Positions 6,339 through 24,520 are shown, numbered from the stretch's first letter. The stretch is 64,000 bases of DNA from Desulfosoma sp. (GCA_037481835.1 JBBFKW010000016.1:55502-119501), one strand, 5' to 3'. Program-made: numbers and translations. The notes: generated from the letters alone by a model not told the origin.

Positions 6339-7049
6339 CTAAAACCCCAAATAGGCCTCGCGCACTTTCGGGTCTTTCTCCAGCTCTCGGCTTGATCCGT
6401 GCCGGACGATGCGCCCGCTTTCGATAACGTAGCCGTAGTGGGCGATCCGAAGGGTCTGGTGGACGTTTTGTTCCACGAGAAAGATCGTAAGGCCCATGGC
6501 GTTCAATTCTTGAATCACCCGAAAAACCTCGTGAACCAGGATGGGGGCCAGCCCCAGGCTTGGTTCATCGAACAGGACCAGGGTGGGGTCCTGCATGAGT
6601 CCTCTGCCGATGGCGAGCATTTGCTGCTCGCCTCCGGAGAGGGTTTCGGCGATCTGGTTACGCCTTTCGGCGAGCCGTGGGAAAAGATCATAGACGCGCC
6701 TGAGGTTTTGGGCGCGTTTTTCTTTGGCGCGCTTCAGGTAGGCGCCGAGGATGAGGTTCTCTTCCACGGTCATCTTGGGGAAGAGCTGGCGGCCTTCGGG
6801 AATGAGGGTGATGCCCTGGGCGACAACCTCGTGCACGGGCATGCCACTGATGCGGCGGTTTTCATAGCGGATCTCGCCGGAACTTACAGGCAGCAGGCCG
6901 CAAATGGTCTTGAGCGTCGTGGTTTTTCCGGCCCCGTTGGCCCCGATCAGGGCGATGATCTGGCGTTCTTGGACATCAAGTGTCATGTCCCACAGGGCCT
7001 GCACATCACCGTAATGGGCCGAGACGTCTTGGAGATGAAGGAGGTTCAT
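6339..7049 (-). CDS. livF: Branched-chain amino acid-type ABC transporter ATPase
   Basis: GANGAGKTT, LSGGEQQMLAIGRGLM, DEPSLGLAP, VEQNV. Confidence 0.93.
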   Translation of the reverse strand: MNLLHLQDVSAHYGDVQALWDMTLDVQERQIIALIGANGAGKTTTLKTICGLLPVSSGEIRYENRRISGMPVHEVVAQGITLIPEGRQLFPKMTVEENLILGAYLKRAKEKRAQNLRRVYDLFPRLAERRNQIAETLSGGEQQMLAIGRGLMQDPTLVLFDEPSLGLAPILVHEVFRVIQELNAMGLTIFLVEQNVHQTLRIAHYGYVIESGRIVRHGSSRELEKDPKVREAYLGF

Positions 7050-7771
7050 GCGACGGATTCTCCCAGGTAGGCTTCGATGACAGCGGGATTTTGGGCCACT
7101 TCCTCTGGAGCGCCTTCGGCGATCTTTTGGCCGTAGTTCAGGACCACCACCCGGTCGCTGATGTTCATGATGACGCGCATGATGTGTTCCACGATGATGA
7201 TGGTGAGACCACGGGCTCGCAGGCTGAGAATGAGCTGCACCGTGCGGTCGGCTTCTGTGGGGTTGAGCCCCGCGACGACTTCGTCGAGCAGGAGCAGGGA
7301 CGGTTCCAAGGCCAAAGCCTTGCTGATTTCCAGGCGCTTTCTGCCGGCAAGGGTGAGGGTTGAGGCCTGATCCCGAGCTCTGTCCGCCAAACCCGTAAAT
7401 TCCAAAATGTCCCACGCATGACGCTCCGCATCCTGCCGGCGGGGGTGCTTGAGCAAGGCCGCTACCACAACATTGTCCAAGACCGTCAACCCGGTGAAGG
7501 GCTTGACGATCTGGAAGGTCCGCCCGATGCCGAGCCGCGCCAGGTTATACGGAGGCAGGCCCGTGATGTCCTGTTCGCGAAAAAAGACTCGCCCCAGCGT
7601 GGGCCTGTAGTAACCGCTGATGAGATTGAACAAGGTGGTTTTCCCGGCGCCGTTGGGCCCGATGAGGCCGAGAATTTCCTGGGGAGCAACCGTGAAACTG
7701 ACAGCCTCCACGGCGTGCAGACCGCCGAAGACTTTGGAGACGGAATCCACGCGAAGCATGGGCTCAGCCAT
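7046..7771 (-). CDS. livG: Branched-chain amino acid-type ABC transporter ATPase
   Basis: [34 protein letters not shown]. Confidence 0.93.
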   Translation of the reverse strand: MAEPMLRVDSVSKVFGGLHAVEAVSFTVAPQEILGLIGPNGAGKTTLFNLISGYYRPTLGRVFFREQDITGLPPYNLARLGIGRTFQIVKPFTGLTVLDNVVVAALLKHPRRQDAERHAWDILEFTGLADRARDQASTLTLAGRKRLEISKALALEPSLLLLDEVVAGLNPTEADRTVQLILSLRARGLTIIIVEHIMRVIMNISDRVVVLNYGQKIAEGAPEEVAQNPAVIEAYLGESVA

Positions 7772-8753
7772 TGGGAACCTCCGAGGCCTTCTTCTTGGTA
7801 TCCGGTTGGGGGGCTTCCGTGGGGACGAGCGGCCTTTTGGCGGTTCGGCTCAGGATCGAGCCCCATAGGCCGTCGGGAAGGAAGACCACACTGAACGCGA
7901 TGAGGGCTCCGAGGATGATGAGATACAGAACCTGGTAGTCGGAAAGATAGGCCCAGAAGTAGGTCTTGAAAGAAAAGAGGACAATGGAGCCGAGAACGGG
8001 GCCGATCAAGGTACCCAGTCCTCCGAAGACAGCCATGACCACGGCCTGGTCGGTGATGATGTCTCCCAGGGTGGAGGCGGGGTCGATGTAGGTGATCCAG
8101 TACGCGTAGATTCCTCCGATGATCCCCGCCGGGCACGCAGACAGGATAAAGGCTTGGATTTTGATACGGGCGGGGTTGAGACCCAGCGCCATGGCTCCGG
8201 CTTCATTTTCCCGAATGGCTTTCAGTTTGAGTCCGAATGGGGCTGTTTCCAGGAGATACCACAGAAGAAAGAAAACGGCCGCCGTGACCGACAACATGGC
8301 GTAGTAGAAAAATTGGGGATGCAGGAACGGCGGCAGCCGCATGCCGTCGGGCCCTCCGGTGATTTCCAAAATCAAAGCCACCTGTTGGACCGCTCGGGCC
8401 AGCGCCCACGTGGCGATGGCAAAATAAGCCCCTTTGAGGCGCAGGGTGGGGATTCCCGCGATGAAAGCCGCCACCGCGGCCACCAGGCCTCCCGCCGCCA
8501 CGGCGAGTGGGAAAGGCCAGCCTCCATGTCCCATGAGGATCGCCGTCGTATAGGCTCCCAGGCCGAAAAAGGCTCCATGACCGAAATTCAGGTAACCCGT
8601 GTATCCAGCCAAAACGTCCCATGTGATGGCCAGCCCGATCCACATGACGGCTTCCGTTAGGACGCGCAAGTAGAACGTATCGTGAACGATCAAAGGGATA
8701 GAGGCCAGCAGGGCTGTCATGGCGACGGCCCAAAGAATCACCTTCCGGGGCAT
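7764..8753 (-). CDS. livM: Liv-type ABC transporter permease
   Basis: GYTGYLNFGHGAFFGLGAY, LRLKGAYFAIAT, TGGPDG. Confidence 0.92.
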   Translation of the reverse strand: MPRKVILWAVAMTALLASIPLIVHDTFYLRVLTEAVMWIGLAITWDVLAGYTGYLNFGHGAFFGLGAYTTAILMGHGGWPFPLAVAAGGLVAAVAAFIAGIPTLRLKGAYFAIATWALARAVQQVALILEITGGPDGMRLPPFLHPQFFYYAMLSVTAAVFFLLWYLLETAPFGLKLKAIRENEAGAMALGLNPARIKIQAFILSACPAGIIGGIYAYWITYIDPASTLGDIITDQAVVMAVFGGLGTLIGPVLGSIVLFSFKTYFWAYLSDYQVLYLIILGALIAFSVVFLPDGLWGSILSRTAKRPLVPTEAPQPDTKKKASEVPNG

Positions 8754-8756
8754 GAA

Positions 8757-9641
8757 TCAAACTCCCTTCCTGAAGAGCCCAGTGGGTGAGATGAGCAAGA
8801 TCGCGTAAAGAATGGCGAAGACGGCCAAGAGCGTATAAGCCGGGCTGAGGTAGATGAGGAAGAAGGATTGCACGAAGCCGAGGAGAAAGGCGGCCCACGG
8901 GACGCCCGCCAAATAGCCCATTCCCGCCAAGACGACGACGAAAAAGGCGAAGACCGTGAGATCGGGGCCCATTTGGGCGCTGATGGAAAAAATGCACCCG
9001 AAAATGGTTCCCGTCATGGCACTGATGGCCACATAGAGCCCGTAGACATGGGAACTGACACGCTTGGCGTTGATTCCCATGAGTCCCGCCGATTCCTTGT
9101 GCTGGGCCAGGGCCTGGACGGCAAGGCCGAAATCGGTCTTTTTCAGCAGGTAATGAAGGCCCACGGTCACCGCCAAGGCATAGCTCAAGCCTGCAAAGCG
9201 AATCACGGGGATGGTCACGAAGAAATTGCCGGATTGAAAGAACCAGGACCCTTTAGCGAGGGCGGACGAAATGGATCGGGAAAAGAAACCGAACCCCGTC
9301 AAAGCCAGCCCTCGAAACATAAGCGCCAAACCGAAGGTGAACACCAACCCCATCAAGACGGGGTTCCCCCGACGACCGCTGAGGACGCGATGGATGAGCG
9401 GCTGCAGGCAAAACCCGACGATGTAGAAAACCAAGAAAATGATCGGCAGATAGAGGAAAGGTTCCCAGCCGAACCATTGGTTCAGGTAATAACCGAGGAA
9501 GGCGCCCAACATGATCCATTCGCCAACAGCGAAGTCAATGATGTGCATGACGCCGTAGGCGAGGGAAAAACCGATGGCGATGGTGATGTAGATGCCTCCG
9601 ATGAGGAGCCCATCCACGATGGCCTGTGGCAAAAGCAGCAT
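8757..9641 (-). CDS. livH: Liv-type ABC transporter permease
   Basis: QAIVDGLLIGGIY...GFSLAYGVMHIIDFAVGE; ATG at 9641. Confidence 0.9.
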   Translation of the reverse strand: MLLLPQAIVDGLLIGGIYITIAIGFSLAYGVMHIIDFAVGEWIMLGAFLGYYLNQWFGWEPFLYLPIIFLVFYIVGFCLQPLIHRVLSGRRGNPVLMGLVFTFGLALMFRGLALTGFGFFSRSISSALAKGSWFFQSGNFFVTIPVIRFAGLSYALAVTVGLHYLLKKTDFGLAVQALAQHKESAGLMGINAKRVSSHVYGLYVAISAMTGTIFGCIFSISAQMGPDLTVFAFFVVVLAGMGYLAGVPWAAFLLGFVQSFFLIYLSPAYTLLAVFAILYAILLISPTGLFRKGV

Positions 9642-9765
9642 GATGCGGCAACTCCGGATCGGGTTAATGTCCGGATCGGACCTGGACCCGCGACGCAGAC
9701 CTGAGGCGGGGATCCGCAAACCGTGGCTCGCGGGCCGTCGAAGACCTTCGGCGAGATTGACGGCA

Positions 9766-9797
9766 GGAGGGGCACGGTTCATGCGCCGTGCCCCTCC
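9766..9797. other. Intercistronic hairpin downstream of the binding-protein gene
   Basis: 12-bp stem GGAGGGGCACGG/CCGTGCCCCTCC; typical position for an mRNA-stabilising or attenuating structure. Confidence 0.45.
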
Positions 9798-9849
9798 ACG
9801 GCCTAAGGTTCACGAGCCCGCAACGCCACCGACACGGGGAAGGCGCCTC

Positions 9850-11088
9850 CTAGCGTTCCTTCCAGGCCTTCAGGGGGTAAATGGGCGCGTTTTCCGCATG
9901 CTCCTTGGGGCCGACGATCTTCACATGGCCTCCTTGGATTTGAATGGTCAGCGGGGTCAGGCCCACGTTGGCGTGATAGTATTCCCCTTCGTCGGCGAAG
10001 TTGATCTTCCCGTAAAAGGTGTCGATATCCAGCTGTTCAAGGGCCTTAACCAGCGCCTCGCGTTCTTCTTCGGACAAGGGCGGTGTGGCCTTGATCTTCT
10101 GGACGGCTGCCTGGAAGGCAATGCCAGCTGCCGAAGACCCCGCTTGGGTGTAATCGGCGGGGACGTTAAAGGCCTTCAAGGCCGCCTGGGCATAAGTCGG
10201 AGCATCCGGCCAAATGAGGGTTCCGTGCGTCTTCAGGCTCCCCGTCCAGACGGATCCCCCGAAAACCCCTTCCGCGTCCTTTCCCAAGGCTTCGATGAAG
10301 GCAGGCTCCGTCACGCCGTAGTGCATCAAGAGGGCTTTGGGCGTGTAGTCGATTTGGCGGAGAGCCTTGACGAGGTTAATGAGTTCTTCATCGTGGCCGC
10401 CGAAGGCGATGAGGTCCGGCCGCGTGGCCTTGGCCACCGACATGTAGGGCGTGAGGTCTTGGCCCGCCGGGACGATGTCGAACTTCAAGACCTTGATGCC
10501 TCGGGCTTCGGCGGCGGCCTTGAAGGCTTCCGCGGTCGCTTTGGAAAAGGCGTCGTTGGATCCCAAGATAATGGCCGTTTTCGGTGCCGGATCAAGGGTC
10601 ATAAGGGTTTCGATGGGCACGGACCCCGTGTAGTTGACCGGCGGGATGGTCCCGAAAGTGTAGCGGAACTTCTGCCGCCAAATGAGCGGCGATTCGGCGG
10701 ATCCGGTGATCATCGGGATGCGGTACTTTTCCAATACGGGGGCGCAGGCAAGGGTGACCCCGGAAGAGTATGGCCCCAGGACGAAGTCGACCTTTTCCTG
10801 TGTTGCCAGGCGTTCTGCGGCAGACGCCCCGACGGCGGGTTCCGATTGGGCGTCGGCGTAGAAAAGCTTTACGGGGTATTTCTTCCCGTCGATTTCGATC
10901 CCGCCCTGCTCGTTGACTGCCTGGGCCCACAAATCGTAGCCGCGCTTGGTCACGTTGCCGCCTGTGGCCAAGTCCCCGGAAAGGGAAGTGATGACCCCGA
11001 TCTTGAAAAAGTCCCGGGTTTCTTCGGCGCCGACGGAGCCGATAAAAGCGCAAACGAGGACGAGGCAAAAAACCAAAACTCTTTTCAT
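9850..11088 (-). CDS. livK: Liv-type ABC transporter periplasmic binding protein
   Basis: Signal peptide, KIGVITSLSG, VNEQGGI, DFVLGPYSS. Confidence 0.9.
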   Translation of the reverse strand: MKRVLVFCLVLVCAFIGSVGAEETRDFFKIGVITSLSGDLATGGNVTKRGYDLWAQAVNEQGGIEIDGKKYPVKLFYADAQSEPAVGASAAERLATQEKVDFVLGPYSSGVTLACAPVLEKYRIPMITGSAESPLIWRQKFRYTFGTIPPVNYTGSVPIETLMTLDPAPKTAIILGSNDAFSKATAEAFKAAAEARGIKVLKFDIVPAGQDLTPYMSVAKATRPDLIAFGGHDEELINLVKALRQIDYTPKALLMHYGVTEPAFIEALGKDAEGVFGGSVWTGSLKTHGTLIWPDAPTYAQAALKAFNVPADYTQAGSSAAGIAFQAAVQKIKATPPLSEEEREALVKALEQLDIDTFYGKINFADEGEYYHANVGLTPLTIQIQGGHVKIVGPKEHAENAPIYPLKAWKER

Positions 11089-11153
11089 GGAACGCCTCCT
11101 GTGCCGTTAAGGGGAAAACCTCTCAACCATCCCATGACCATTCACTTAAATGA

Positions 11154-11169
11154 AGCAACATCCATACCG
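11154..11169 (-). promoter_or_regulatory. Sigma54 (-24/-12) promoter for the liv operon
   Basis: Minus strand CGGTATGGATGTTGCT: GG-N10-GC with TTGC, about 65 nt upstream of livK. Confidence 0.65.
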
Positions 11170-11250
11170 GGAAACATGAGGGCCACGATCGGTTTTTCCC
11201 ATAAGGATGCCTTACCGCAGCCGGTCGGCCCCCTTTCCGCAATCTATGCA

Positions 11251-13131
11251 TTAGGGCATAGGGCTGTTCAGTCTTTGGGGGCGGTCCGATCCCAGGCCGT
11301 ATTTTTTCATTTTTCGGGACACCGTGGACTGGTTGATGCCCAGCTTTCTCGCAACGGTCCACTGCGAGCCGTAGGTTTCCAGGGCCCTGGTCAGAATGCG
11401 GTATTCGGCGGCTTCCAGGAGGGCTTTGAGAGAGGTGCCTTCCAGGGGGATCTCTTCGGCCCCTTCCCGGTCCCCTGGGCGGCACACGACGTTTTGGGGC
11501 AAATCGTCCAGCCGGATAGGGTTGTTTTCGCACATCACCGCAAGACGCTCGCACAGGTTGACCAGTTCTCGGACGTTTCCCGGATAGTCGTAGGCGGTGA
11601 GCGCATCCGCCGCCTCCCGGCTCAATCGAAGGGCCGGCTTTTGGAGTTTGGTGCAAAAACGTTCCAGATAGTGCTGAAGCATGGGAAAGATGCACTCCCG
11701 CCGTTCCCGCAAGGGGGGGATCCACAAGGGGATGACGTTCAGGCGGTAATAGAGGTCCTTTCGGAATTCACCTCGATCAACCATGGCAGCCAGGTCTCGG
11801 TTCGTGGCAGCAAGGATGCGCACATCCAACTTGCGGCTCGTGGTCCCGCCGACCCGGGTGATTCGCCCGTCTTCCAAAAAGCGCAGGAGTTTCACTTGGG
11901 ACGCTAGGGGCAGTTCGGAAACTTCATCCAGAAGAAGGGTTCCTCCGTCGGCCGCCTCGAAATAGCCGGGCTTGCCGCTCTGGCGGGCTCCGGTAAAGGC
12001 GCCGCGTTCGTAGCCGAAAAGTTCCGCCTCGATGAGGGTTTCCGGAATGGCACCGCAGTTGATGCGAATCATGGGGTGCTGGGCGCGGGGAGAAAACTTG
12101 TGGATAATGTCCGCAATCAGGCCCTTGCCAACGCCGGATTCGCCATGGAGGAGCACGGTGGAGTCGACGGCGCTCACCTTCAAGGCTTGGTGCAACACGT
12201 TGACCATGGCAGGGCTTCGCGCGATGATCTCATGGTCGTGAAGGCGCGCCAGCTGCATGTCCACGATCTGGTTTTTGTATTGGTCCTTGAGGGCTTTTTC
12301 CTGTTCGAGGCTCTTGTAGAGGGCGTCGATTTCCGTGATGTCCCGTTCGTTGACGACGATGAGGGACAATCGACCGCTCTCGTCAAAGACGGGGCTTCCG
12401 GTAAGCATGAGTTTGCGGCCATTTCGGGTGTTTTGAAGGAGGTTGACGACGCGGCCCGTGCGGATGACTTCCAAGGTGGCCGAACAATCCACAAGGCCTT
12501 CTTCCACCAGCTGCCGCATGTTCCGGCCCACCACATCCTGGGCCTTCAGGGCATTAAGGCGTTCCGAGGCGCGGTTGATCCGCAGAACGGTTCCCTCGCC
12601 GTCACAAATCCAGAGCCCGTCGTAGGAGGAGTCGATGATGGCGTCCAGTTCGCGGGAAAGGTTCTGGTAGGACAACAGGGCGCGGGTCACGTCCTCCAAT
12701 TGCAGGCTGTTTTGGAAATGGCACAAGACACCCGGACCGAAGGGGGGACTTTCGAGGGGGCTGATGCGCACCATATAGCGAATTGCGCGGGCATCCTGAA
12801 TACATCCATACCGAACGGCGCCGTCCCTCAGCGTGGCGGACGCTTCGTGCCACACAGCCGGAAAGATCGTTTCAAGATTCGCTCCTTCGGCGATCCCTAG
12901 AAGTTCCCGGCAGGCTTTGTTGACCACGGTGATCGTCTTGGAGGGGTTTGCGGCCAAAAGAGGGTCCCCCATGGCGTCCAAGAGCCGCATGCCGAGGTCG
13001 TCCCAAGGGCGGTCGGATTCCTTTTCCGTCGGTACGTGGGAAAAATATGCTTTCGCCGAGGCCTCCACCACCGTGCGCTCCATCTGGAAGGAAGAAATCG
13101 TCCTTATCAAGTCCGCTCTGGCCCATGCCAT
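11251..13131 (-). CDS. PAS-domain sigma54-dependent transcriptional activator (start uncertain)
   Basis: PAS regions, GESGVGK, ELFGYERGAFTGA, FRKDLYYRLNV, PGNVREL, C-terminal HTH. Confidence 0.92.
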   Translation of the reverse strand: MAWARADLIRTISSFQMERTVVEASAKAYFSHVPTEKESDRPWDDLGMRLLDAMGDPLLAANPSKTITVVNKACRELLGIAEGANLETIFPAVWHEASATLRDGAVRYGCIQDARAIRYMVRISPLESPPFGPGVLCHFQNSLQLEDVTRALLSYQNLSRELDAIIDSSYDGLWICDGEGTVLRINRASERLNALKAQDVVGRNMRQLVEEGLVDCSATLEVIRTGRVVNLLQNTRNGRKLMLTGSPVFDESGRLSLIVVNERDITEIDALYKSLEQEKALKDQYKNQIVDMQLARLHDHEIIARSPAMVNVLHQALKVSAVDSTVLLHGESGVGKGLIADIIHKFSPRAQHPMIRINCGAIPETLIEAELFGYERGAFTGARQSGKPGYFEAADGGTLLLDEVSELPLASQVKLLRFLEDGRITRVGGTTSRKLDVRILAATNRDLAAMVDRGEFRKDLYYRLNVIPLWIPPLRERRECIFPMLQHYLERFCTKLQKPALRLSREAADALTAYDYPGNVRELVNLCERLAVMCENNPIRLDDLPQNVVCRPGDREGAEEIPLEGTSLKALLEAAEYRILTRALETYGSQWTVARKLGINQSTVSRKMKKYGLGSDRPQRLNSPMP

Positions 13132-13244
13132 ATCGCATAGCCTATGCCGAAGCGCATGGTCAAGCCTGGTGTGTGGGGACGTTTCTTGCAGCGCCTTTTG
13201 CGCTTGACTGGCCTAGGCCTTCAGGCATGGCGAGCGGCGAGTAT

Positions 13245-13260
13245 TGGTATGCTCCTTGTT
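13245..13260 (+). promoter_or_regulatory. Possible sigma54 promoter for gabT-aor
   Basis: TGGTATGCTCCTTGTT: GG-N10-GT (the -12 C is replaced by T), 60 nt upstream of the gabT ATG. Confidence 0.4.
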
Positions 13261-13319
13261 AGGTGAGCGGTTCGGCACCTTTTCCGTTGCACGATCCTGC
13301 CTTGAGAAAGGAGTTCAGC

Positions 13320-14624
13320 ATGACCGGATTGTCAAGCGCTCTAATCGAAAGAAGAAACCGCAACGTTCCTCAGGGACCTTTCAATGTGACGCCGGCTTTC
13401 ATCAAAGAAGCCCGAGGGGCCGTCTTGATCGACGTGGATGGCCGGGAACTCATCGACTTTGCAGGCGGCATTGGTGTCATGAATGTCGGCCATTCCCATC
13501 CCAAGGTGGTGGCCGCCTTGAAGGATCAGGCGGAGAAGTTCACGCACACCTGTTTTCACGTGGCCATGTATGAACCCTACGTGGCGCTTGCCGAACGGTT
13601 GAATGCTCTGGCCCCGGGCGATTTTTCCAAGATGACCCTCTTTGCCAACAGCGGTGCGGAGGCGGTGGAAAACGCGGTCAAAATCGCTCGATACGCGACG
13701 CAAAGGCCGGCCGTCATTTGCTTTGAAAACGGCTTTCACGGTCGAACGCTGCTCACCATGACGCTGACCAGCAAGGTCAAACCCTACAAGCTGGGTTTCG
13801 GGCCCTTCGCTCCGGAAGTCTATCGCATGCCCTATGCCTACTGTTACCGATGTCCGTTCCGTCTGCATTACCCCGGCTGCGACGTTGCCTGCGCCGATTA
13901 CCTTGAAGAGTTTTTCATCTCCCATGTGGCTGCGGAATGCACGGCGGCCGTCATCGCCGAACCCATTCAGGGAGAGGGGGGATTTGTCACGCCACCTCCG
14001 GAATATTTCGCCAAACTTCAAAGGATTTGCCAAAAATATGGCATCCTGCTTATCATCGACGAAGTCCAATCGGCCATGGGCCGCACGGGAAAACTCTTCG
14101 CCATCGAACACTGGGGCGTCGTTCCCGACCTGATGACCCTCGCCAAGAGCTTGGCGGCGGGCATGCCGTTGAGCGCCGTGGTCGGTCGGGCCGAACTCAT
14201 GAACAAACCCCACGTGGGCGGCCTGGGCGGCACCTACGGCGGGAACCCTCTGGGATGCCGGGCGGCTCTGGCCGTGCTGGAAATCCTCTTGGACGACGGC
14301 CTGCTCAAGACGGCCGAAGCCTTGGGCGCAAAGGTCCGAAGCGCCTTCAACCGGTTGCAGGAGTCCTACGAAATCATCGGGGATGTGCGGGGCAAGGGGC
14401 CCATGCTCGCCATGGAACTGGTCCGGGACCGGGAAACCAAGGAACCGGCGACGGACGAGGCCAAGAAACTTGTGAATCTCTGCTACCAAAAAGGGCTTGT
14501 GCTGCTTAGCTGCGGCAATTTCGGAAATGTCATCCGAACCCTGATGCCTCTCGTGATCACCGATGAACAATTGGATCGGGGCATGGCCATCTTGGAAGAA
14601 TCCTTGAGGGAACTGACCCGTTGA
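13320..14624 (+). CDS. gabT: Class III PLP aminotransferase, 4-aminobutyrate/5-aminovalerate type
   Basis: IDFAGGIGVMNVGH, NSGAEAVENAVK, FHGRT, EPIQGEGG, DEVQ, AKSLAAGMPLS, GGTYGGNP; AAGGAG RBS. Confidence 0.9.
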   Translation: MTGLSSALIERRNRNVPQGPFNVTPAFIKEARGAVLIDVDGRELIDFAGGIGVMNVGHSHPKVVAALKDQAEKFTHTCFHVAMYEPYVALAERLNALAPGDFSKMTLFANSGAEAVENAVKIARYATQRPAVICFENGFHGRTLLTMTLTSKVKPYKLGFGPFAPEVYRMPYAYCYRCPFRLHYPGCDVACADYLEEFFISHVAAECTAAVIAEPIQGEGGFVTPPPEYFAKLQRICQKYGILLIIDEVQSAMGRTGKLFAIEHWGVVPDLMTLAKSLAAGMPLSAVVGRAELMNKPHVGGLGGTYGGNPLGCRAALAVLEILLDDGLLKTAEALGAKVRSAFNRLQESYEIIGDVRGKGPMLAMELVRDRETKEPATDEAKKLVNLCYQKGLVLLSCGNFGNVIRTLMPLVITDEQLDRGMAILEESLRELTR

Positions 14625-14692
14625 AGACCCAAGGGTCTGAATGAAATATGGGAACGGCATTAGATGGCTTCGGGCAAGTAAAAGGGGGGCGT

Positions 14693-16447
14693 ATGAAAGG
14701 GTTTTTCGGCCGCTATCTCGTGATTGATGTGAAGGAGACCCGGTGGGACGTGGTGCCGCTGGACGAGGCGCTTCTTCGCCGCAGTCTTGGAGGAAAGGGG
14801 CTGGCCACCCGGTTGCTTTTGGAAAGAAACCCCGCAGGGGTCGATCCCCTGTCGCCCGACAACCACCTCATCTTTGCCCTGGGTCCGGCAAGTGATACGG
14901 CCGTCTACGGCTCCTGCCGGCACGGGATCTTTGCCAAATCCCCCCTGACGGGGTTTTACGGCGAGTCCTATTCCGGAGGGCGGGTGGCCATTCCCATGAG
15001 CCGCACGGGTTACGACGCCATAGTGATCCGAGGGGCGTCCGCATCTCCCGTGTGGCTTGAAATTTCGGATATGGAGGTGCGCTTCCACGACGCCTCCGAC
15101 CTGTGGGGCCTGGACACCTTTGAGACGGAAGACCGCGTGCTGGAAAGAGCCGGAATGGACGGGGCGGGCGCCGTGGTCATCGGTCCTGCCGGGGAAAATT
15201 TGGTCCGCTACGCCGTTGTGGAAAACGACTACTGGCGGTCGGCGGGACGCTGCGGCATGGGGGCGGTCCTCGGATCCAAGAAGATCAAAGCCGTGGTGTT
15301 TCACGGCACGCGATCGCGGCCGGTGGCCGATGAAGAAGGCATCAAGACCTACGCTCGAGAAATGGTCAAGAATCTTAAGGACCACAAGGCGACCCAGGCG
15401 TACCGCACCCACGGCACGCCCATGATGGTGGCTTTGCTCAACACGGTGGGAGGGTTCCCCACCCGGTACTGGGCCAAAGGCACCTTCGAACATTGGAAGA
15501 AAATCAGCGCCGAAATCCTGGTGGATCGGTTGGGGGCACGCCCCAAGGCGTGCCGCACGTGCTTCATGGGGTGCGGTAAGTATGTGGAAATCCAGGAGGG
15601 CCGCCACAAGGGGCTAAAGATCGAAGGGCCCGAATATGAAACCATTTATGCCTTCGGCGGCCTGTGCGAAATCGATGCGCTGGATGAAATCGCCCACCTG
15701 AACGATCTGTGTGACCGTCTGGGCATGGACACCATCACGGCGGGAAACATGGCGGCCTTTGCCATCGAAGCCTCCCGACGCGGCGTGATCCGCGAGCGGC
15801 TCGATTATGGGGACGTGGACGCCATCGCCGATCTCCTGGTAAAAATCGCCAAACGGGAAGGAATCGGCGATCTCCTTTCCCAGGGAATCCGTCCGGCGGC
15901 CGCGGAGCTCAAGCTGGAAGAGCTGGCCGTGCACGTCAAAGGCTTGGAACCCGCCGGCTATGACCCCCGTGCCCTCAAGGGCATGGGCCTGGCCTACGCG
16001 GTGAGCGACCGCGGAGCATGCCACCTTCGGGCCACATTTTACAAAGCCGAACTGGCCGGGTTGATCGATCCCCAAAAGATCGAAGGGAAAGCCGAGCTTT
16101 TTTTGGATTTCGAAGACCGATGCACGCTCTTTGACTGCCTTGTCCTGTGCCGTTTCTACAGGGATTTTTACCCTTGGGAGGAGCTTGCTAAGATCATTGA
16201 ACTGACCACGGGCGAACACATGGAAAAGGCCGATCTGCAGAAGATCGCCTCCTTTGTTGTGGACAGTGCGCGCCAATTCAATCTGCGGGAAGGTCTGACC
16301 GCGGCCGACGATCGCCTTCCCCGAAGGCTTCTCGAGGAGCCTTTGGAAGACGGCCGACGCATCACCCAAGAAGAAATGCAGCGGCTCGTCCAAGATTATT
16401 ATCGGCTCAGAGGCTGGAATTCCCAAGGCGTGCCGTCCGTGACATAG
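14693..16447 (+). CDS. aor: Tungsten-dependent aldehyde:ferredoxin oxidoreductase family protein
   Basis: KSPLTG, GPAGENLV, AGRCGMGAVLGSKKIKA, CRTCFMGC, EGPEYET, DRLGMDTI, RGACH. Confidence 0.92.
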   Translation: MKGFFGRYLVIDVKETRWDVVPLDEALLRRSLGGKGLATRLLLERNPAGVDPLSPDNHLIFALGPASDTAVYGSCRHGIFAKSPLTGFYGESYSGGRVAIPMSRTGYDAIVIRGASASPVWLEISDMEVRFHDASDLWGLDTFETEDRVLERAGMDGAGAVVIGPAGENLVRYAVVENDYWRSAGRCGMGAVLGSKKIKAVVFHGTRSRPVADEEGIKTYAREMVKNLKDHKATQAYRTHGTPMMVALLNTVGGFPTRYWAKGTFEHWKKISAEILVDRLGARPKACRTCFMGCGKYVEIQEGRHKGLKIEGPEYETIYAFGGLCEIDALDEIAHLNDLCDRLGMDTITAGNMAAFAIEASRRGVIRERLDYGDVDAIADLLVKIAKREGIGDLLSQGIRPAAAELKLEELAVHVKGLEPAGYDPRALKGMGLAYAVSDRGACHLRATFYKAELAGLIDPQKIEGKAELFLDFEDRCTLFDCLVLCRFYRDFYPWEELAKIIELTTGEHMEKADLQKIASFVVDSARQFNLREGLTAADDRLPRRLLEEPLEDGRRITQEEMQRLVQDYYRLRGWNSQGVPSVT

Positions 16448-17149
16448 GGCAAACCCATGGATGACCATAGTAAAAGGATTTAAACCTTGCCATCACGGGG
16501 GCTGTTCCTAGGACCAAACGACAAAGTTTCTTTCAAGGTCGCCAGAATCCAGGGACAAATAAAGCACTGGCGAAATTCGAGAGAATGACTGGGCGATATA
16601 TATGGGGAATTTCCCCCGTAAAAAACCGTCATCAGGATATTCCCGCTCACTATATCAACACCAGTCGTCAGTTGATGGCTTGGATCGTCAACGTGTACAG
16701 CATGCGGCGTTTTATAACTTTTGCAGGCTCCGCCTGTTCTCACAAGATAAATATCCCTGCAACAGCACAGGTTGGAAAATTCGGAAACCTTGGCTGTCAT
16801 GCTGACAGGCATGTATCTGACGAAGGATATTTTGCAAAAAACTATAAATGGTGCCGACATTCTAGCCAACGCTGGCGGGGCCTGCGTATCCTATTTCGAA
16901 GCGATTCAAAATGTTCGTCAGCTTTTACAGACAGAAAGCGATACCAACGCGTCCATCAAATCAAGAAAAGAGCCTTTCAAGGAGGCTGCACTGTCACTAT
17001 TCGGGGAAAAGTATGCATTTGTACGGCTGCCCACATACGCCATTCAGCACGTGGTGTGAGCGAAAAAGCCGCGAGGGACGTTTTCGTGGCAATGGCATAG
17101 GCGCTCTACTTTGTTGATCTCTCAGTGTCATCCAAAAGAGGAGAGCATT

Positions 17150-17647
17150 ATGAAATCAGGACTACCAATCGAATTGGTCGTTCCGGTGCTGGCCGCACTA
17201 TCGTGCCTTTTAATGAAGGTGGGAGGAGGCCTTCCTGTTTGGGCGGTCTTTCTTGGATGGGCGTGGTATTTTGCTATGGGAGCCACTCCCTCGATTTTAA
17301 AAAAGATTTATCCCGCAGTGATACCTGGATCAGTTCTTGGCGGGCTCTGTCTTTGGCTCATTGGAGCACTGCACAATCTAGGAATTGGGGGCATGCCCGG
17401 CATTATGCTGGCAGTGTTCGTTACCGTATTTATTCTCATGCTTTTCCTGAGGATACCATTAACCAGTGCCGGTCTTCCTGCTTTTAATGCCTACTCTACT
17501 GTGTTTGCGCTTTATGCTATTCCCAATGGATTTCCTTCTATTGGGGGCAACCCGATTTTAGGCTGTATCGTTTGGGGTATGATAGCCAATTTTCTCGGTC
17601 CTGTGTTCGGTTTTTTAAGTATTTATTTATTGTTCAAGAAAGAATGA
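17150..17647 (+). CDS. DUF1097 family membrane protein (possible transporter)
   Basis: Very hydrophobic 165 aa; LPVWAVFLGWAWYFAMG resembles the DUF1097 pattern; GAGGAG RBS. Confidence 0.65.
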   Translation: MKSGLPIELVVPVLAALSCLLMKVGGGLPVWAVFLGWAWYFAMGATPSILKKIYPAVIPGSVLGGLCLWLIGALHNLGIGGMPGIMLAVFVTVFILMLFLRIPLTSAGLPAFNAYSTVFALYAIPNGFPSIGGNPILGCIVWGMIANFLGPVFGFLSIYLLFKKE

Positions 17648-17720
17648 TGGTCTATAAAAGTCCTTTGTGCTTCGTCGATGCTTTCCATTTTGTTTTTCCG
17701 CAAAGGCTAGGAGTATGTCC

Positions 17721-18473
17721 ATGAAAGTAGATATTAACGCTGATGTTGGAGAAAGTTTCGGTCTCTATCGTATGGGTAATGACGAAGAATTTATGCAGTA
17801 CATCACAAGTGCCAATGTTGCCTGTGGGTTTCATGCCGGGGATGCCACCGTCATGCATAGGACCGTGCTCCTGGCAAAGAAATACGGTGTACAGATCGGT
17901 GCTCACCCGGGGTTGCCCGACCGCCAAGGGTTTGGCCGACGTGAGATGAACTGCAGCATTGAGGAAATTTATGACGACGTTATGTATCAGGTTGGAGCGT
18001 TGAAGGCTTTCGTTGAAGCTTCGGGAATGAGATTGCATCATGTGAAGCCTCACGGCTCACTCTATGGCATGGCCAATCGTCGGGCTGAAGTTGCTGAAGC
18101 CATTTGCCAAGTGATCCTTGATGTCGACCCGAAAATGTATTTCTACACGATGAAAAAAGGCCTTGTTGGACAAGTTGCCCGGAAGATGGGCGTGCGGGTT
18201 GTGTTCGAGCTCTATGGAGATTTGGAATACGACCCCGAAGGGAATCTCGTCATTACAAGGCATCATGAGGCTCAGAAACCCAATGCCGTTGCCGCTAAAG
18301 TTCTAAAAATGGTGCAGCACGGCAGAGTTACGGCGACGGACGGGAGCGAAATTGCCATTGAAGGGAGTTCCGTGTGTCTCCACTCGGATACGCCGGACGC
18401 AGTTGAGATTCTCAGGGCTGTGAACCAGGGCCTAAGGGAAGCAGGCTTTTTACTAGAATCTCCTCCTCTATAA
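17721..18473 (+). CDS. pxpA: LamB/YcsF family protein (5-oxoprolinase subunit A-like)
   Basis: DINADVGESFG, SANVACGFHAGD, GAHPG.PD..GFGRR, HVKPHGSLY, CLHSDTP. Confidence 0.93.
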   Translation: MKVDINADVGESFGLYRMGNDEEFMQYITSANVACGFHAGDATVMHRTVLLAKKYGVQIGAHPGLPDRQGFGRREMNCSIEEIYDDVMYQVGALKAFVEASGMRLHHVKPHGSLYGMANRRAEVAEAICQVILDVDPKMYFYTMKKGLVGQVARKMGVRVVFELYGDLEYDPEGNLVITRHHEAQKPNAVAAKVLKMVQHGRVTATDGSEIAIEGSSVCLHSDTPDAVEILRAVNQGLREAGFLLESPPL

Positions 18474-18647
18474 GTAGGGGATCAACCCGCTTGGATCGCC
18501 TCATGCTGAACCGATTATTCCACGTGAGGACATGCATAAGCACGGTAATGTCCTTTGCAGCTAAAGGTGCCCCACAGAAAGCGTGTTTTAAATGATGGAA
18601 ATTGAATTAAAGATTGTAAACATTCTGTAGACGGGAGGATGACGATT

Positions 18648-19634
18648 ATGAGCAGGGGAAAATATCACGTCATACTCGATACGATGCCCGAAACTCCATC
18701 GAGGTTGGAAATCCTTTTCCGACAGGCTGGAGATGGTTTCCTGCAGGTGGAATATGGACGGGAGCCGCGCGCTGCCCTACAGGATTCCTTTAGAATTTTG
18801 GCGGTGAATGACATCATCCGCGATAAAAAAATCAAAGGGCTTATTGAAACAGTTCCTGGACTTCGAACAAATCTTTTTCACTACGATCCTGAGATTTTGT
18901 CAGTCAAAGAGCTAATTGAGCAAATTAAAGAAGCTGAAGATTCAATGCCGACCATCGATGATGTTGTTTTGAATTCCAGATTGATTCATCTTCCCATAGC
19001 TTTCGAAGACAGCGAGACGAAAAAAGCGGTTGAAAAATATGTGAGAGAAGTGAGGCCGGACGCGCCTAATGTCATAAACGGATACAATCTTGAGTATATC
19101 GCTCTTTGTAATGGGGTAACGGTGGAGGAAGCGAAAGGAATGATTTTGGGTACGGAATGGTTTAACAGCGGATGTGGTTTTTGGCCCGGAGGGGCATTCC
19201 TATGGCCCATGGATCCGCGGTGCGCATTGGTGGTCCCCAAATACAATCCCCCCCGAACATGGACCCCGGAAGGCGCCGTGGGGATCGGTGGACCTTGCGT
19301 GTTTACTTACACGACACCGACGGGCGGTGGGTATCAGCTTTTCGGACGGACAATCCCGACATTTCAATTCGCCTGTAAACACCCGATTTTCAAAAACGGC
19401 CCATTCCTCTATCGACCGGCGGACCGCGTGAAATTCCATGAGGTTAGTGAGCAGGAGGTGCTGAATATTTTTGAACATGTCCATGATAAAACGGACTATA
19501 TATATCAGATCGAAGAAGGGCAGGTGGTTGCCAAAGATTACCTGAAATGGGTACAAAGCGAAGATGTTCAGAAAGGTGTTGAGCAATTAAAGGCAAAACA
19601 GGCCGAGGGTGTGAGAAAAGCTCCGCGGCTTTAG
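18648..19634 (+). CDS. Urea carboxylase-like carboxyltransferase C/D subunit (AHS1/PxpB family, long form)
   Basis: RQAGDGFLQVEYG, LPIAFED...VEKYVREVRPDAP, PKYNPPRTWTPEGAVGIGG, GGYQLFGRT. Confidence 0.85.
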   Translation: MSRGKYHVILDTMPETPSRLEILFRQAGDGFLQVEYGREPRAALQDSFRILAVNDIIRDKKIKGLIETVPGLRTNLFHYDPEILSVKELIEQIKEAEDSMPTIDDVVLNSRLIHLPIAFEDSETKKAVEKYVREVRPDAPNVINGYNLEYIALCNGVTVEEAKGMILGTEWFNSGCGFWPGGAFLWPMDPRCALVVPKYNPPRTWTPEGAVGIGGPCVFTYTTPTGGGYQLFGRTIPTFQFACKHPIFKNGPFLYRPADRVKFHEVSEQEVLNIFEHVHDKTDYIYQIEEGQVVAKDYLKWVQSEDVQKGVEQLKAKQAEGVRKAPRL

Positions 19635-19664
19635 AAATCTAAAAAAGAGAAAGGAGTTTCATCC

Positions 19665-20648
19665 ATGTTAAAAATTTTGAATCCCGGAATAGAAGTTTTA
19701 GTTGAAGACTGGCCCGGTCGGCTTGGGTATTTGGGTATGGGGATGTCTGCGTCGGGAGCATTTGATAACGTAGCCCTTGGCTTGGGAAATATTCTGGTAG
19801 GAAATCCTCCCGGCGAGGCAGGCTTGGAAATTACGGGCGGTTTCTTGGAAGCCCAGTTCGGGGAGGATACCGTCATTGCCGTGACTGGAACCGATATGCA
19901 ACCGACCCTTAACAATGAACCTTTTCCCATGTGGCAATCGGTTAGAGTGTCTCGAGGAGATGTGATTAGATTCAAGCATATCGGGCCGTACGGGTTTCGA
20001 AGTTATTTGGCCATAGCCGGTGGCATTGATGTGCCGGTATATCTCGGCAGCAAATCTACGTGTATTTTCGGAGGGTACGGCGGCTTTCAAGGGCGCAAGC
20101 TGGCGGCAGGGGACGAGCTCCGATTGGGGAGGCCAAGTGCTTCCTTAAGTGAACTGGCGGATCGAAAGCTTAAGCCTGGGGTGCAGCCGCAATACGAACG
20201 TGAATGGCGACTTCGAGCGATACCCGGACCGAACACGTGCCCTGATTACGTCACCGAAGAAGGGATGGATCTTCTGTTTTCCAAATCCTTCAAGATCAAT
20301 CACAACTCCAATCGTTCTGCCTATCGTCTGGATCCCTTGCCCGACAGCTTCTTTGCTCGGCCTGACGGCGGGGTAGGTGGGAGCCATCCATCCAATATCC
20401 TGGATCATGCTTATGCCATTCGGGGGGCCTTAAATGTTTGCGGAAACACGCCGATTTTGCTCATTGCCGACGGCCCCACCCTCGGCGGTTATATCTGCTG
20501 CCTAAACGTCATTAACGCTGATTTGTGGAAGATTGGCCAGGGTGCTCCCGGTCGTGATTTTATTAAGTTTGACTACGCAGATCAGGAAACGGCGACACAA
20601 GCACGGATAGCTCAGAAGAAGCTTCTCAGTGAGGATTCCTTAGCTTAA
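19665..20648 (+). CDS. Urea carboxylase-like carboxyltransferase A/B subunit (AHS2/PxpC family)
   Basis: VEDWPGRLGY...SGAFD, GFRSYLAIAGGIDVP.YLGSKST, HPSNILDHAY, DGPTLGGY. Confidence 0.88.
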   Translation: MLKILNPGIEVLVEDWPGRLGYLGMGMSASGAFDNVALGLGNILVGNPPGEAGLEITGGFLEAQFGEDTVIAVTGTDMQPTLNNEPFPMWQSVRVSRGDVIRFKHIGPYGFRSYLAIAGGIDVPVYLGSKSTCIFGGYGGFQGRKLAAGDELRLGRPSASLSELADRKLKPGVQPQYEREWRLRAIPGPNTCPDYVTEEGMDLLFSKSFKINHNSNRSAYRLDPLPDSFFARPDGGVGGSHPSNILDHAYAIRGALNVCGNTPILLIADGPTLGGYICCLNVINADLWKIGQGAPGRDFIKFDYADQETATQARIAQKKLLSEDSLA

Positions 20649-20682
20649 GGTCTTACAGATAACAACTTATAGGAGAGTGTCC

Positions 20683-20901
20683 ATGGAAAAAACTGTTAAT
20701 GCAATTATGCCGGGATTGACCGCACGCGTGGTGGTGAACGTGGGAGATAGAGTGGCAAGAGGCCAGGAGGTGGCCGTCATTAACTGCATGAAAACCGAAA
20801 TTCCCGTTGTGAGCGAGGATGATGGGGTCGTTAAACAAATCCTTGTAAAGGAGTGGGATGAGCTCCAGGTGGGGGATCCCATGGTGGTTTTAGAAGTATA
20901 A
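20683..20901 (+). CDS. Stand-alone biotin carboxyl carrier protein
   Basis: 72-aa biotinyl-domain pattern VGDRVARGQEVAVINCMKTEIPV with MK lysine; AGGAG RBS. Confidence 0.85.
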   Translation: MEKTVNAIMPGLTARVVVNVGDRVARGQEVAVINCMKTEIPVVSEDDGVVKQILVKEWDELQVGDPMVVLEV

Positions 20902-20923
20902 ACCCGGAATGGTATCTATGAAC

Positions 20924-22258
20924 ATGATCAAAAAACTCCTTGTGGCCAACCGTGGTGAAATCGTCCGCCGCATTATCCGAACGTGCCGAGAAATGGGCGT
21001 TCAAACGGTTGCTGTGTTTTCGGAAGCAGATCGCGGGGCTGCTTATGTGACCGATGCAGACCAGGCTGTTTGTATCGGTCCTGCGAATCCTCTGCAGAGT
21101 TATCTGAACATCGATGCCCTTTTGGATGCGGCGCGAAAAACGGGGGCCGATGCGGTTCACCCCGGGTACGGTTTTCTTTCGGAGCGCGGTGCGTTCGCAG
21201 AGGCCGTAGAGAATGCCGGGATGATTTGGGTCGGTCCCCCATCAAAACTCCTGCGCAGGATCAGTTCTAAGTGTGCGTGCAGGCAGATTGCGAGTGAGGT
21301 GGGGGTGCCAGTCGTGCCAGGTACGCTGAAACCGGTTGCCGATCCTGAGGAAATTTTAAAATATGGAAGGCGGCATGGATACCCCCTTTTCCTAAAGCTC
21401 GACAAAGGAGGTGGGGGCAAAGGTATTTCGAGGATTAACGGCCCCGAGGATGTGGAGCGAGTCTTCAAGCAGGCGAGCAGTATTGGAAGTGTGGCTTTTG
21501 GATCTTCGGACTGCTATTTAGAGCATGTCGTGGCAAAGCCTCGCCACATTGAGGTCCAGTTTGTGGCGGACAAGCACGGCAACTGTGTTTGTCTCGGAGA
21601 GCGCGAGTGTTCCATTCAACGACGAAATCAAAAAATTATAGAGGAGGGTCCATCGCCTGCGGTCTCCCCAGAAGAGCGAGCCCTGTTATTCGATTGGACC
21701 AGGCGGATTGTGCTCCGTATGGGATACCACGGGGCAGGAACGATCGAAGGGCTTCGGTCCGCGGATGGGAGCTACTATTTCATGGAAATAAATGCCCGCC
21801 TGCAGGTGGAACATGCGGTGAGCGAGTTCATAACAGGCCTTGACATTGTCAAGTGCCAGCTTGAAATATCTTGCGGGATGCCGCTCAGTTTTGTTCAAGA
21901 GGAAGTTAGCCTTAGCGGACACGCTATCGAGGCGCGAATTTACGCCGAAGACCCCGAAACCTTCATGCCTTCACCGGGCATTATCAAAAGACTCAGTCTT
22001 CCCGCAGTTAATAATTGCCTGAGGATCGACCATGCCCTTGCAGAAAACACAACTGTTCCCCCATATTACGATCCCCTCCTCGCCAAGGTCGTTGCTTGGG
22101 ATGGGAATCGGCCAGCGGCCATTGGGCGACTAACCGAGGCGCTCAAGCGTATTGAAATTGAAGGGATTAAGACCAACATTCAAACGAGCCTGAAGGTCCT
22201 AAGTAGTGAGTTGTTTCTGCGCGGTGAGTATGACACCTCGTTTTTGAGTGGAGAATAA
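20924..22258 (+). CDS. Biotin carboxylase (alternative starts at 20909 and 20918)
   Basis: KKLLVANRGE, HPGYGFLSE, GGGGKG, ERECSIQRRNQK, MEINARLQVEH, YYDPLLAK. Confidence 0.93.
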   Translation: MIKKLLVANRGEIVRRIIRTCREMGVQTVAVFSEADRGAAYVTDADQAVCIGPANPLQSYLNIDALLDAARKTGADAVHPGYGFLSERGAFAEAVENAGMIWVGPPSKLLRRISSKCACRQIASEVGVPVVPGTLKPVADPEEILKYGRRHGYPLFLKLDKGGGGKGISRINGPEDVERVFKQASSIGSVAFGSSDCYLEHVVAKPRHIEVQFVADKHGNCVCLGERECSIQRRNQKIIEEGPSPAVSPEERALLFDWTRRIVLRMGYHGAGTIEGLRSADGSYYFMEINARLQVEHAVSEFITGLDIVKCQLEISCGMPLSFVQEEVSLSGHAIEARIYAEDPETFMPSPGIIKRLSLPAVNNCLRIDHALAENTTVPPYYDPLLAKVVAWDGNRPAAIGRLTEALKRIEIEGIKTNIQTSLKVLSSELFLRGEYDTSFLSGE

Positions 22259-22294
22259 TGTAATATTATTTGTGAATCGCGTGACGACTTGGTA

Positions 22295-22318
22295 AGGGCA
22301 GGAAGTCTATCCTGCCCT
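22295..22318 (+). terminator. Hairpin after the carboxylase operon
   Basis: 9-bp stem AGGGCAGGA/TCCTGCCCT; no strong U tract. Confidence 0.4.
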
Positions 22319-22414
22319 AAGATATTAAATTCGATTTTCCTGGAAGCATATAGAAACAAAGCGTTTTCCTCCGAATGAATTTCAACGCCGAGGGGGGGTG
22401 TTTCTTTGGAGAGT

Positions 22415-23975: not shown

Positions 23976-23988
23976 GAGATGTTAAAAG

Positions 23989-24470: not shown

Positions 24471-24520
24471 CGTGTCCGTGAGCTTGCCCGCCGTCTGTAA
24501 AAACCACAAAAAGCAAAAGA

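Follow-up and report, generated by a model that had tools for sequence, protein, structure and literature searches.

The fungal LamA protein is urea-carboxylase-like, and the lam locus of Aspergillus nidulans (lamA, lamB), with the AmdR-controlled genes for 4-aminobutyrate (GABA), pairs a LamB/YcsF protein with a biotin enzyme, both being required for the use of 2-pyrrolidinone, and passes GABA on to GABA transaminase. The lamB gene of this fungus is a 2-pyrrolidinone utilisation gene (PMC3412718). Pseudomonas putida cannot grow on butyrolactam without PP_2920-2, a paralogue of PxpABC (bioRxiv 10.1101/2021.12.09.472016); PxpABC and PP_2920-2 combine a LamB-type subunit with two homologues of carboxyltransferase subdomains and open a five-membered lactam in an ATP-dependent reaction. 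Urea carboxylase, or urea amidolyase (Kluyveromyces lactis, 3VA7 and 5I8I), is composed of a biotin carboxylase (BC), a biotin carboxyl carrier protein (BCCP), and a carboxyltransferase (CT) of four subdomains. GABA catabolism in Bacillus thuringiensis is controlled by GabR, a PAS/sigma-54 activator of gabT, with GABA and succinic semialdehyde as the inducers (PMC4279683). Here we compare these systems with a gene block at positions 6339-22258 of a 64,000-nucleotide stretch of DNA from Desulfosoma sp. (GCA_037481835.1 JBBFKW010000016.1:55502-119501; the whole stretch is called the window below), in which genes for a Liv-type importer, a sigma-54 activator, a GABA aminotransferase (gabT), and a tungsten-type aldehyde:ferredoxin oxidoreductase (AOR, gene aor) are followed by a LamB/carboxylase cassette. 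Neither a bacterial lactamase of the BC-BCCP-carboxyltransferase-LamB type nor a gabT-AOR pair was found described in a full-text literature search that left most subscription journals outside its reach.

We conclude that the two gene groups probably make up one catabolic route, leading from a lactam through GABA and succinate semialdehyde to succinate and reduced ferredoxin. This interpretation had been offered in a first-pass annotation of the DNA, and comparative genomics supports it: native GABA genes and an acquired ring-opening set, joined in an arrangement recurrent in anaerobes, point to an uncharacterised ring-amide-to-succinate pathway. The genes named in that annotation (Liv importer, PAS-sigma-54 activator, gabT, aor, and LamB/carboxylase cassette) were all confirmed in place by open reading frames (ORFs), Pfam, and NCBIfam; a 74-aa BCCP was absent from its list as a separate item. 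Its choice of 22258 as the end of the block does not hold, since an IS1380-family remnant, a universal stress protein (Usp) gene, and tRNA-Leu(CAG) come after. The cassette comprises six genes:

17111/17150-17647, plus strand, small membrane protein of the DUF1097 family (PF06496, 66.6 bits)
17667/17721-18473, plus strand, LamB/YcsF (PxpA-type) hydrolase subunit (PF03746, 315.4 bits)
18639-19634, plus strand, carboxyltransferase subunit with subdomains C and D (CT_C_D, also CT_CD), urea-carboxylase type (TIGR02712)
19665-20648, plus strand, carboxyltransferase subunit with subdomains A and B (CT_A_B), urea-carboxylase type (TIGR02712)
20677-20901, plus strand, BCCP, 74 aa, biotinyl-lysine context C-M-K-T (ORF; NCBIfam BCCP models)
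20909-22258, plus strand, BC (Pfam, NCBIfam)

All six are intact ORFs with full-length domain matches, and the urea carboxylase model TIGR02712 matches four of the products: both carboxyltransferase subunits, the BCCP, and the BC. CT_C_D scores 230.7 bits against TIGR02712 but only 53.4 bits against the PxpB model TIGR00370, failing its cut-off of 145.55, and CT_A_B scores 295 bits against TIGR02712 but 175.8 bits against the PxpC model NF045499, failing its cut-off of 500 (221 bits against TIGR00724, below the cut-off of 230.2). The nearest solved structure for both is the K. lactis urea carboxylase 3VA7, with 133 bits for CT_C_D (39.6 bits for YbgJ) and 212.9 bits for CT_A_B (116.6 bits for YbgK). 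The LamB subunit passes the PxpA model (NF003814, 312.5 bits, cut-off 226) and matches structure 1V6T at 234 bits. The cassette is no plain PxpABC oxoprolinase; on these profile scores, it is predicted to encode a biotin enzyme of the urea-carboxylase kind, divided among four proteins and with LamB replacing allophanate hydrolase.

Each of the described systems shares part of this design and departs from it elsewhere. Urea carboxylase is a single polypeptide of ~1200 aa, whereas the window has four separate ORFs, and the partner of urea amidolyase is an amidase-signature allophanate hydrolase, whereas here it is LamB, with genomic partners that point to lactam and GABA. PxpABC and PP_2920-2 have three subunits and no biotin components, while this operon encodes both BC and BCCP and its carboxyltransferase subunits resemble urea carboxylase. 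The A. nidulans lam system differs from the locus described here, where four proteins make up the biotin enzyme, a strict anaerobe is the host, the activator is of the sigma-54 type, and the aldehyde step is assigned to a tungsten-type AOR. The cassette adds a BC to a genome that already encodes a paralogue of 40% identity (G000:C2) as well as a biotin ligase. A canonical pxpBCA operon of native GC content is present elsewhere (G000:C7:124998-127336; locus L094, 9945-12484), its PxpB scoring 211 bits and passing the cut-off that the island subunit fails; it adjoins a gene for a DctP-type TRAP binding protein and probably encodes the 5-oxoprolinase used for housekeeping. Among the insert ORFs submitted to the Pfam and NCBIfam scans, none matched an amidase or urea-transporter family. 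The DUF1097 protein, encoded by the sole transporter-like gene of the insert, may be a lactam permease.

The genes upstream of the cassette, which we call module 1 together with their products, are as follows:

~6339-7070, minus strand, livF-like ABC ATPase (PF00005; 83.5% identical to the syntenic gene in congener G002)
7046-7771, minus strand, livG-like ABC ATPase (PF00005 and PF12399, BCA_ABC_TP_C)
7764-8753, minus strand, livM, HAAT-type permease (PF02653)
8757-9782, minus strand, livH, HAAT-type permease (PF02653)
9850-11088, minus strand, LivK-like periplasmic binding protein, Peripla_BP_6 (PF13458, 174.9 bits)
11251-13131, minus strand, sigma-54 enhancer-binding protein with PAS, AAA+ (Sigma54_activat), and helix-turn-helix (HTH) domains (Pfam)
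13320-14624, plus strand (longest ORF from 13263), gabT, 4-aminobutyrate aminotransferase (TIGR00700)
14648-16447, plus strand, aor, tungsten-type aldehyde:ferredoxin oxidoreductase (PF02730 and PF01314, AFOR_N and AFOR_C, both full)

Module 1 (activator, LIV importer, GabT, and AOR) is native: it has ~59% GC and occurs in congeners, the liv-activator-gabT-aor block being syntenic in three genomes of the same genus. GabT scores 566 bits against TIGR00700 (cut-off 506.65), and its 13 top solved relatives are, every one, GABA aminotransferases (367-432 bits); the probable start codon is the ATG at 13320, preceded by AAAGGAG. The longest livF ORF extends to 7415, with the ABC domain beginning at residue 143 of that ORF. 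For the LivK-like protein, the top match among solved structures reaches just 77.9 bits, too low for a ligand call; we suggest that the importer takes up GABA or another omega-amino acid, and Liv-type genes are found together with gabT in four of the loci described below (L014, L028, L085, and L090).

The AOR matches 9MQX and 1AOR at 366-368 bits over its full length (1AOR being aligned over residues 17-594) and shows full-length homology to the Pyrococcus furiosus AOR and formaldehyde:ferredoxin oxidoreductase (FOR; 1AOR and 1B25/1B4N) at 366 and 317 bits. Its translation contains C-x2-C-x3-C and a later G-A-C-H, the cysteines of which we take to be the 4Fe-4S cluster ligands. In a maximum-likelihood tree of 34 AOR-family proteins it belongs to a 19-row clade (approximate likelihood ratio test, 100) that spans both phyla of our locus set; gabT is in view in 16 of the 19 rows, and the four other AORs of the genome fall outside. 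Unlike the P. furiosus enzymes, the window AOR sits in a bacterial clade defined by gabT linkage. Homologues of gabT and aor lie no more than 10 kb apart in about ten of 41 related genomes searched, some of which have no cassette homologue listed nearby. The gabT-linked AORs appear to be a dedicated clade, for which both the linkage and the clade itself suggest succinate semialdehyde as the substrate. FOR was crystallised with glutarate, a precedent for omega-carboxy aldehydes as substrates of the AOR family, and probably oxidises glutaric semialdehyde (PMC12096430); an omega-carboxy aldehyde is therefore a plausible AOR substrate. The corresponding step in B. thuringiensis is carried out by an NAD(P)-dependent GabD, where this locus has the AOR.

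We determined how often gabT and aor accompany the cassette by searching one genome per species with a query alignment of four CT_C_D proteins. The search returned 80 loci, from which L091 and L093 were dropped as partial carboxyltransferase matches, leaving 78. All loci except L093, a Dehalococcoidia record, are Thermodesulfobacteriota/delta-labelled or Bacillota, and are anaerobes by name. Neighbours were counted by mapping the window proteins onto the fetched ±10 kb, with gabT and AOR orthologues accepted at 50% identity or above. A gabT gene lies by the cassette in 32/78 loci (Thermodesulfobacteriota/delta 22/39; Bacillota 10/39), an AOR orthologue in 14/78 (5/39 and 9/39), and one or the other in 35/78 (23/39 and 12/39), and a related activator is likewise found in 35/78 (23/39 and 12/39). 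When the count is restricted to the 49 loci with 8 kb or more on each side, 23 have gabT and 10 have aor. BCCP is found in 59/78 and BC in 53/78 related loci. The first-pass annotation had named as a refutation that the two halves never co-occur elsewhere, and had allowed that their link might be coincidental; the co-occurrence of gabT and AOR with the cassette in two phyla disposes of the former, and the latter is not supported, as the partnership recurs in many gene orders.

At least seven such orders can be read from the locus maps. In L015-L018 and L021-L024, lamB and CT_CD enclose gabT, separated from it by 18-107 nt; in Pelotomaculum-type loci (L025, L034, L072, L081), the cassette operon begins with aor, opposite gabT; and in Desulfoferrobacter suflitae (L014), all parts occur on one strand in the order gabT-livKHMGF-aor-lamB-CT-BCCP-BC, with the cassette proteins nearest to those of the window (69-88% identity). 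Three more genomes of the same order, from the G-handle set, show the clustering as well; they were left out of the counts because the collections may overlap. The association is specific for the biotin form: 55 loci have 5 kb or more on each side, and among them gabT or aor is present in 26/48 that have BC or BCCP and in 0/7 that have neither, although the p value of 0.011 is no more than a rough guide because the loci are related to one another. Other recurrent neighbours fit the pathway (glutamate dehydrogenase and biotin ligase, 6 loci each) or could handle the aldehyde in another way (Fe-alcohol dehydrogenase, 5 loci; Mo aldehyde oxidase, 4 loci).

Transport genes vary across the loci. 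A Peripla_BP_4-type ABC importer is encoded near the cassette in 17-21 loci, and DUF1097 adjoins it in 14/39 Bacillota loci and 0/39 Thermodesulfobacteriota/delta loci. We additionally observed a membrane protein of ~200 aa (201 aa; cluster C11) beside BC in 13 loci (L040, L047, L056, L057, L061, L065, L066, L069, L073, L075, L076, L081, L084); it has zero Pfam matches, even at E 1, and may be another lactam channel, to which DUF1097 (in the Bacillota loci and this window) and the Peripla_BP_4 ABC system appear to be alternatives. Separately, loci of the Anaerovorax, Anoxynatronum, and Family XIII type hold a urea-carboxylase-like carboxyltransferase pair and LamB, with no BC, BCCP, or gabT within reach (L029, L033, L037, L039, L054, L080, L092; on shorter contigs, L030, L031, L043, L046, L052, L053, L055). 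About half of these BC/BCCP-free loci have DUF1097, and their biotin parts may either be encoded elsewhere or be dispensed with in a biotin-free form.

In the window itself, the cassette is a recent arrival. The features of the insert and its right flank are:

16435-24008, insert absent from relatives, 7,574 bp, made up of foreign low-GC cargo (16448-22414) and an IS1380 remnant
16573-17083, plus strand, glutamate dehydrogenase (gdh) pseudogene (blastx, tblastn)
22415-23975, minus strand, decayed IS1380-family element (NF033539 on two ORF fragments; ends set by other genomic copies)
23989-24405, plus strand, Usp gene (PF00582)
24521-24608, minus strand, tRNA-Leu(CAG)

The first-pass annotation had noted that the two halves differ in base composition and that their link may be recent, and both observations are borne out. 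GC content drops from ~0.60 to ~0.48 at ~16450; the segment 16448-22258 has 49.6% GC compared to 60.4% for the genome, a value as low in just 5/3442 same-size genome segments, and its tetranucleotide distance is reached by 4/606. Third codon positions have a GC content of 43-56% in genes of the island, compared to 70-76% in native genes. Homology to three congeneric genomes ends at 16418-16437 and restarts at 24011, 24016, or 24521, resuming in the congeners just 118-200 bp on, with the cassette absent; the Usp gene, 188-200 bp past the end of aor homology in congeners G001 and G002, is native. An empty-site variant was also found in an independent metagenome run (X3), where a contig joins 16434 to 24009 and skips the 7,574 bases. 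This variant is ~92% identical (in aor), and the same run holds the island form at 100% identity.

We considered whether the GC break could be an assembly chimera and think it unlikely. A 10.8-kb contig from run X2 spans 11000-19820 with zero differences, although X2 may be the source sample. In the independent run X3, the native and island parts are both 100% identical and of similar depth (~6-8); no contig bridging 16447 was found among the pieces listed for X3, X4, or X6.

The stretch 16448-17110 between aor and DUF1097 is no empty spacer but holds the gdh pseudogene, in two out-of-frame pieces that correspond to about residues 162-229 and 380-457 of a relative's glutamate dehydrogenase; an intact gdh is found elsewhere in the genome (G000:C12). 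Because an intact gdh adjoins the cassette in six related loci, the pseudogene suggests that the insert derived from a gdh-bearing cassette cluster.

The activator ties module 1 to the cassette loci of other genomes. Its residues 50-294 match activators at 21 cassette loci (E 1e-37 to 4e-53, over most of the length of this region) and have no other match in its own genome; 15 more cassette-locus activators match the PAS part only. Residues 50-155 match no Pfam domain. The gene has the layout of the GabR type, encoding PAS, sigma-54 AAA+, and HTH domains and adjoining gabT as in the B. thuringiensis gab cluster, and, within the accessible literature, GabR is the nearest characterised regulator by architecture and context; we infer a GabR-like role. 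The only Sigma54_DBD match in the genome, rpoN, lies in the window at ~62272-62748, ~40 kb from the cluster. Candidate regulatory sites in module 1 are:

11154-11169, minus strand, weak sigma-54 promoter candidate, GG-N10-GC, 9/12, 65 nt upstream of livK (consensus match only)
11244-11261, inverted repeat CTATGC-N6-GCATAG, candidate activator site downstream of the activator gene and upstream of livK
13135-13147, perfect palindrome GCATAG-C-CTATGC, candidate activator site in the activator-gabT intergenic region
13175-13190, plus strand, sigma-54 promoter candidate for gabT-aor, 10/12
13243-13260, plus strand, non-canonical sigma-54 candidate TGGTATG-N4-TTGT, 60 nt before the ATG at 13320 (1/18 positions differ in G002)

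The 3.63-Mb genome has just 3 inverted pairs of the GCATAG/CTATGC hexamers, and the activator gene lies between 2 of these; motifs similar to both are also present in congener G002. Across the 80 loci (1.38 Mb) there are 26 near-consensus sigma-54 sites (11-12/12), of which 17 lie directly upstream of gabT (11), aor (3), or CT_CD (3). The lone sigma-54 candidate for the cassette in the window is a weak 9/12 site at 18492, before CT_CD. No plus-strand intrinsic terminator candidate was found between aor and DUF1097, so read-through from gabT-aor into the cassette is possible. The simple sigma-54 pattern TGGC-N8-TGC gave 13 matches compared to 12.1 expected, and a scan for sigma-70 promoters and terminators returned no excess of sites over shuffled sequence.

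In the pathway that we propose, a lactam, most likely 2-pyrrolidinone, would enter the cell, and BC would use ATP and bicarbonate to carboxylate the biotin on BCCP. The urea-carboxylase-type subunits would then transfer the carboxyl group to the ring nitrogen of the lactam, LamB would hydrolyse the activated ring, and the N-carboxy product would release CO2 to give GABA, feeding module 1. This ring-opening mechanism is modelled on urea amidolyase, the proposed N-carboxylation and hydrolysis of the amide mirroring the conversion of urea through allophanate to ammonia and CO2. GabT would convert GABA to succinate semialdehyde and the AOR would oxidise the latter to succinate with ferredoxin as the acceptor, while a glutamate dehydrogenase encoded elsewhere in the genome would regenerate 2-oxoglutarate. 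Free GABA, or an omega-amino acid close to it, would enter through the LIV-type importer, and the cassette may be expressed here by read-through from gabT-aor. We also put forward, tentatively and with more doubt than confidence, that the biotin- and ATP-driven lactamase (N-carboxylation and LamB) is an enzyme class not yet characterised, acting on stable ring amides, and that it, the succinate-semialdehyde:ferredoxin oxidoreductase clade, and the GabR-like switch form a modular catabolic unit that moves horizontally and has apparently been caught in this genome soon after an IS1380-mediated insertion.

Several findings weigh against the lactam-to-succinate route. Neither gabT nor an AOR orthologue appears in the fetched DNA of 43/78 loci, some of which are on short contigs, and 22 biotin-type loci are without both genes among the 55 with at least 5 kb on both sides. 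The AOR tree comes from a quick search. Three full-length Aldedh-family genes occur elsewhere in the genome, so the AOR need not be the sole aldehyde route; the earlier proposal that it replaces GabD has to be softened. Upstream of DUF1097 or lamB there are zero sigma-54 candidates of at least 9/12, the activator palindrome is absent from the insert, and, with a dead gdh between aor and the cassette, expression of the latter may be poor or uncontrolled in this genome. Since 5-aminovalerate is often accepted by GabT enzymes, the size of the ring is left unfixed. Finally, genes for an old-yellow-enzyme flavin oxidoreductase in 12 loci (L015, L017, L018, L023, L026-L028, L032, L036, L051, L058, L059) and for hydantoinase A/B in 4 (L042, L048, L077, L079) are hints of additional or substituted ring substrates.

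These last neighbours, which recur near the cassette, would also suit a different ring, in which case the cassette would open delta-valerolactam or another cyclic amide or imide, and GabT and the AOR would run 5-aminovalerate through glutarate semialdehyde to glutarate, or would process another omega-amino acid. PrdR regulates proline reductase, the product of which is 5-aminovalerate, and the best NCBIfam match of the activator is PrdR, although below its cut-off. The sequences leave the ring size unfixed, and FOR, of the AOR family, has been linked to glutaric semialdehyde (PMC12096430). However, GabT passes the GABA-aminotransferase equivalog cut-off and has only GABA aminotransferases as its top solved relatives, and, within the accessible literature, the sole genetic precedents for LamB-type systems acting on an unsubstituted lactam (A. 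nidulans lamB and P. putida PP_2920-2) concern a five-membered ring; we regard another ring as unlikely. We think it quite unlikely that the juxtaposition arose by chance, with an IS1380-borne cargo that landed behind aor, by a tRNA gene, and is silent, decaying, or unrelated (5-oxoproline or general amide salvage), which would leave only module 1 as a unit. The insert is indeed recent and foreign, its gdh and its transposase are both dead, its first genes are without an upstream sigma-54 promoter or activator-site candidate, and NCBIfam calls its LamB subunit PxpA. Yet the cargo genes have all remained intact over their full domain lengths, a canonical pxpABC was already in the genome, read-through is possible in the stretch free of terminator candidates, and the partnership recurs in 35/78 loci in many arrangements, so that selection would favour an insertion at just this place, next to gabT-aor. 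If the cassette were a split carboxylase of urea or guanidine that serves nitrogen assimilation, and LamB its accessory hydrolase, this would account for the better fit of the carboxyltransferase subunits, BCCP, and BC to TIGR02712 and 3VA7 than to PxpB and PxpC. We consider this reading highly improbable: the scans of the submitted insert ORFs gave no allophanate hydrolase or urea transporter, and the conserved partners (LamB, GabT, AOR, glutamate dehydrogenase, and the GabR-like activator) have no urea role.

If the lactam-to-succinate route is correct, the locus would provide a biotin-dependent opening of five-membered lactams, comparable to the ring opening on which oxoprolinases spend ATP, would give a bacterial clade of tungsten aldehyde oxidoreductases a physiological function, and would add an anaerobic route for pyrrolidone-type compounds, all three without a biochemical description in the searchable literature. 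Pyrrolidone-type compounds are natural by-products of GABA and putrescine as well as industrial solvents and polymers. On the more tentative reading of a mobile unit, strict anaerobes of two phyla would be able to live on them while saving low-potential electrons. The window would show how such a route is assembled, by insertion of a feeder module directly behind the pathway that it feeds. Cultured carriers of the whole cluster exist, for example Desulfoferrobacter suflitae and Pelotomaculum propionicicum, in which the pathway is directly testable.

The borders of the insert retain traces of its mobile element. The IS1380 remnant has 11-nt terminal inverted repeats at 22416 and ~23973, and its fragmented transposase faces the cargo. 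An 8-nt exact match to the inner repeat of the element (22419-22426) occurs at 16436-16443, which is the left junction and lies in the last aor codons; the length of the aor C terminus is the same in congeners. The site at 16436-16443 might have served as a surrogate end in one-ended (ISEcp1-like) transposition. No target-site duplication was found at the insert. A tRNA-borne integrative island was considered on account of a 23-nt direct repeat (19/23 identical) at 16835-16857 and 24507-24529, the latter including the 3' end of tRNA-Leu, and the repeat was judged to be due to chance; it was rejected as an attachment site, since the island would then enclose the Usp gene, which is native. The cassette of D. 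suflitae was likewise rejected as the donor, because its DNA is only 69% identical, although the CT_CD protein is 87% identical, and its GC content is ~60%. Other partial copies of the IS1380-family element (73-90% identical) are present on G000:C1, C11, C13, C17, C18, and more, and some of them stand at contig starts (C1:1-460), which may explain the assembly breaks there.

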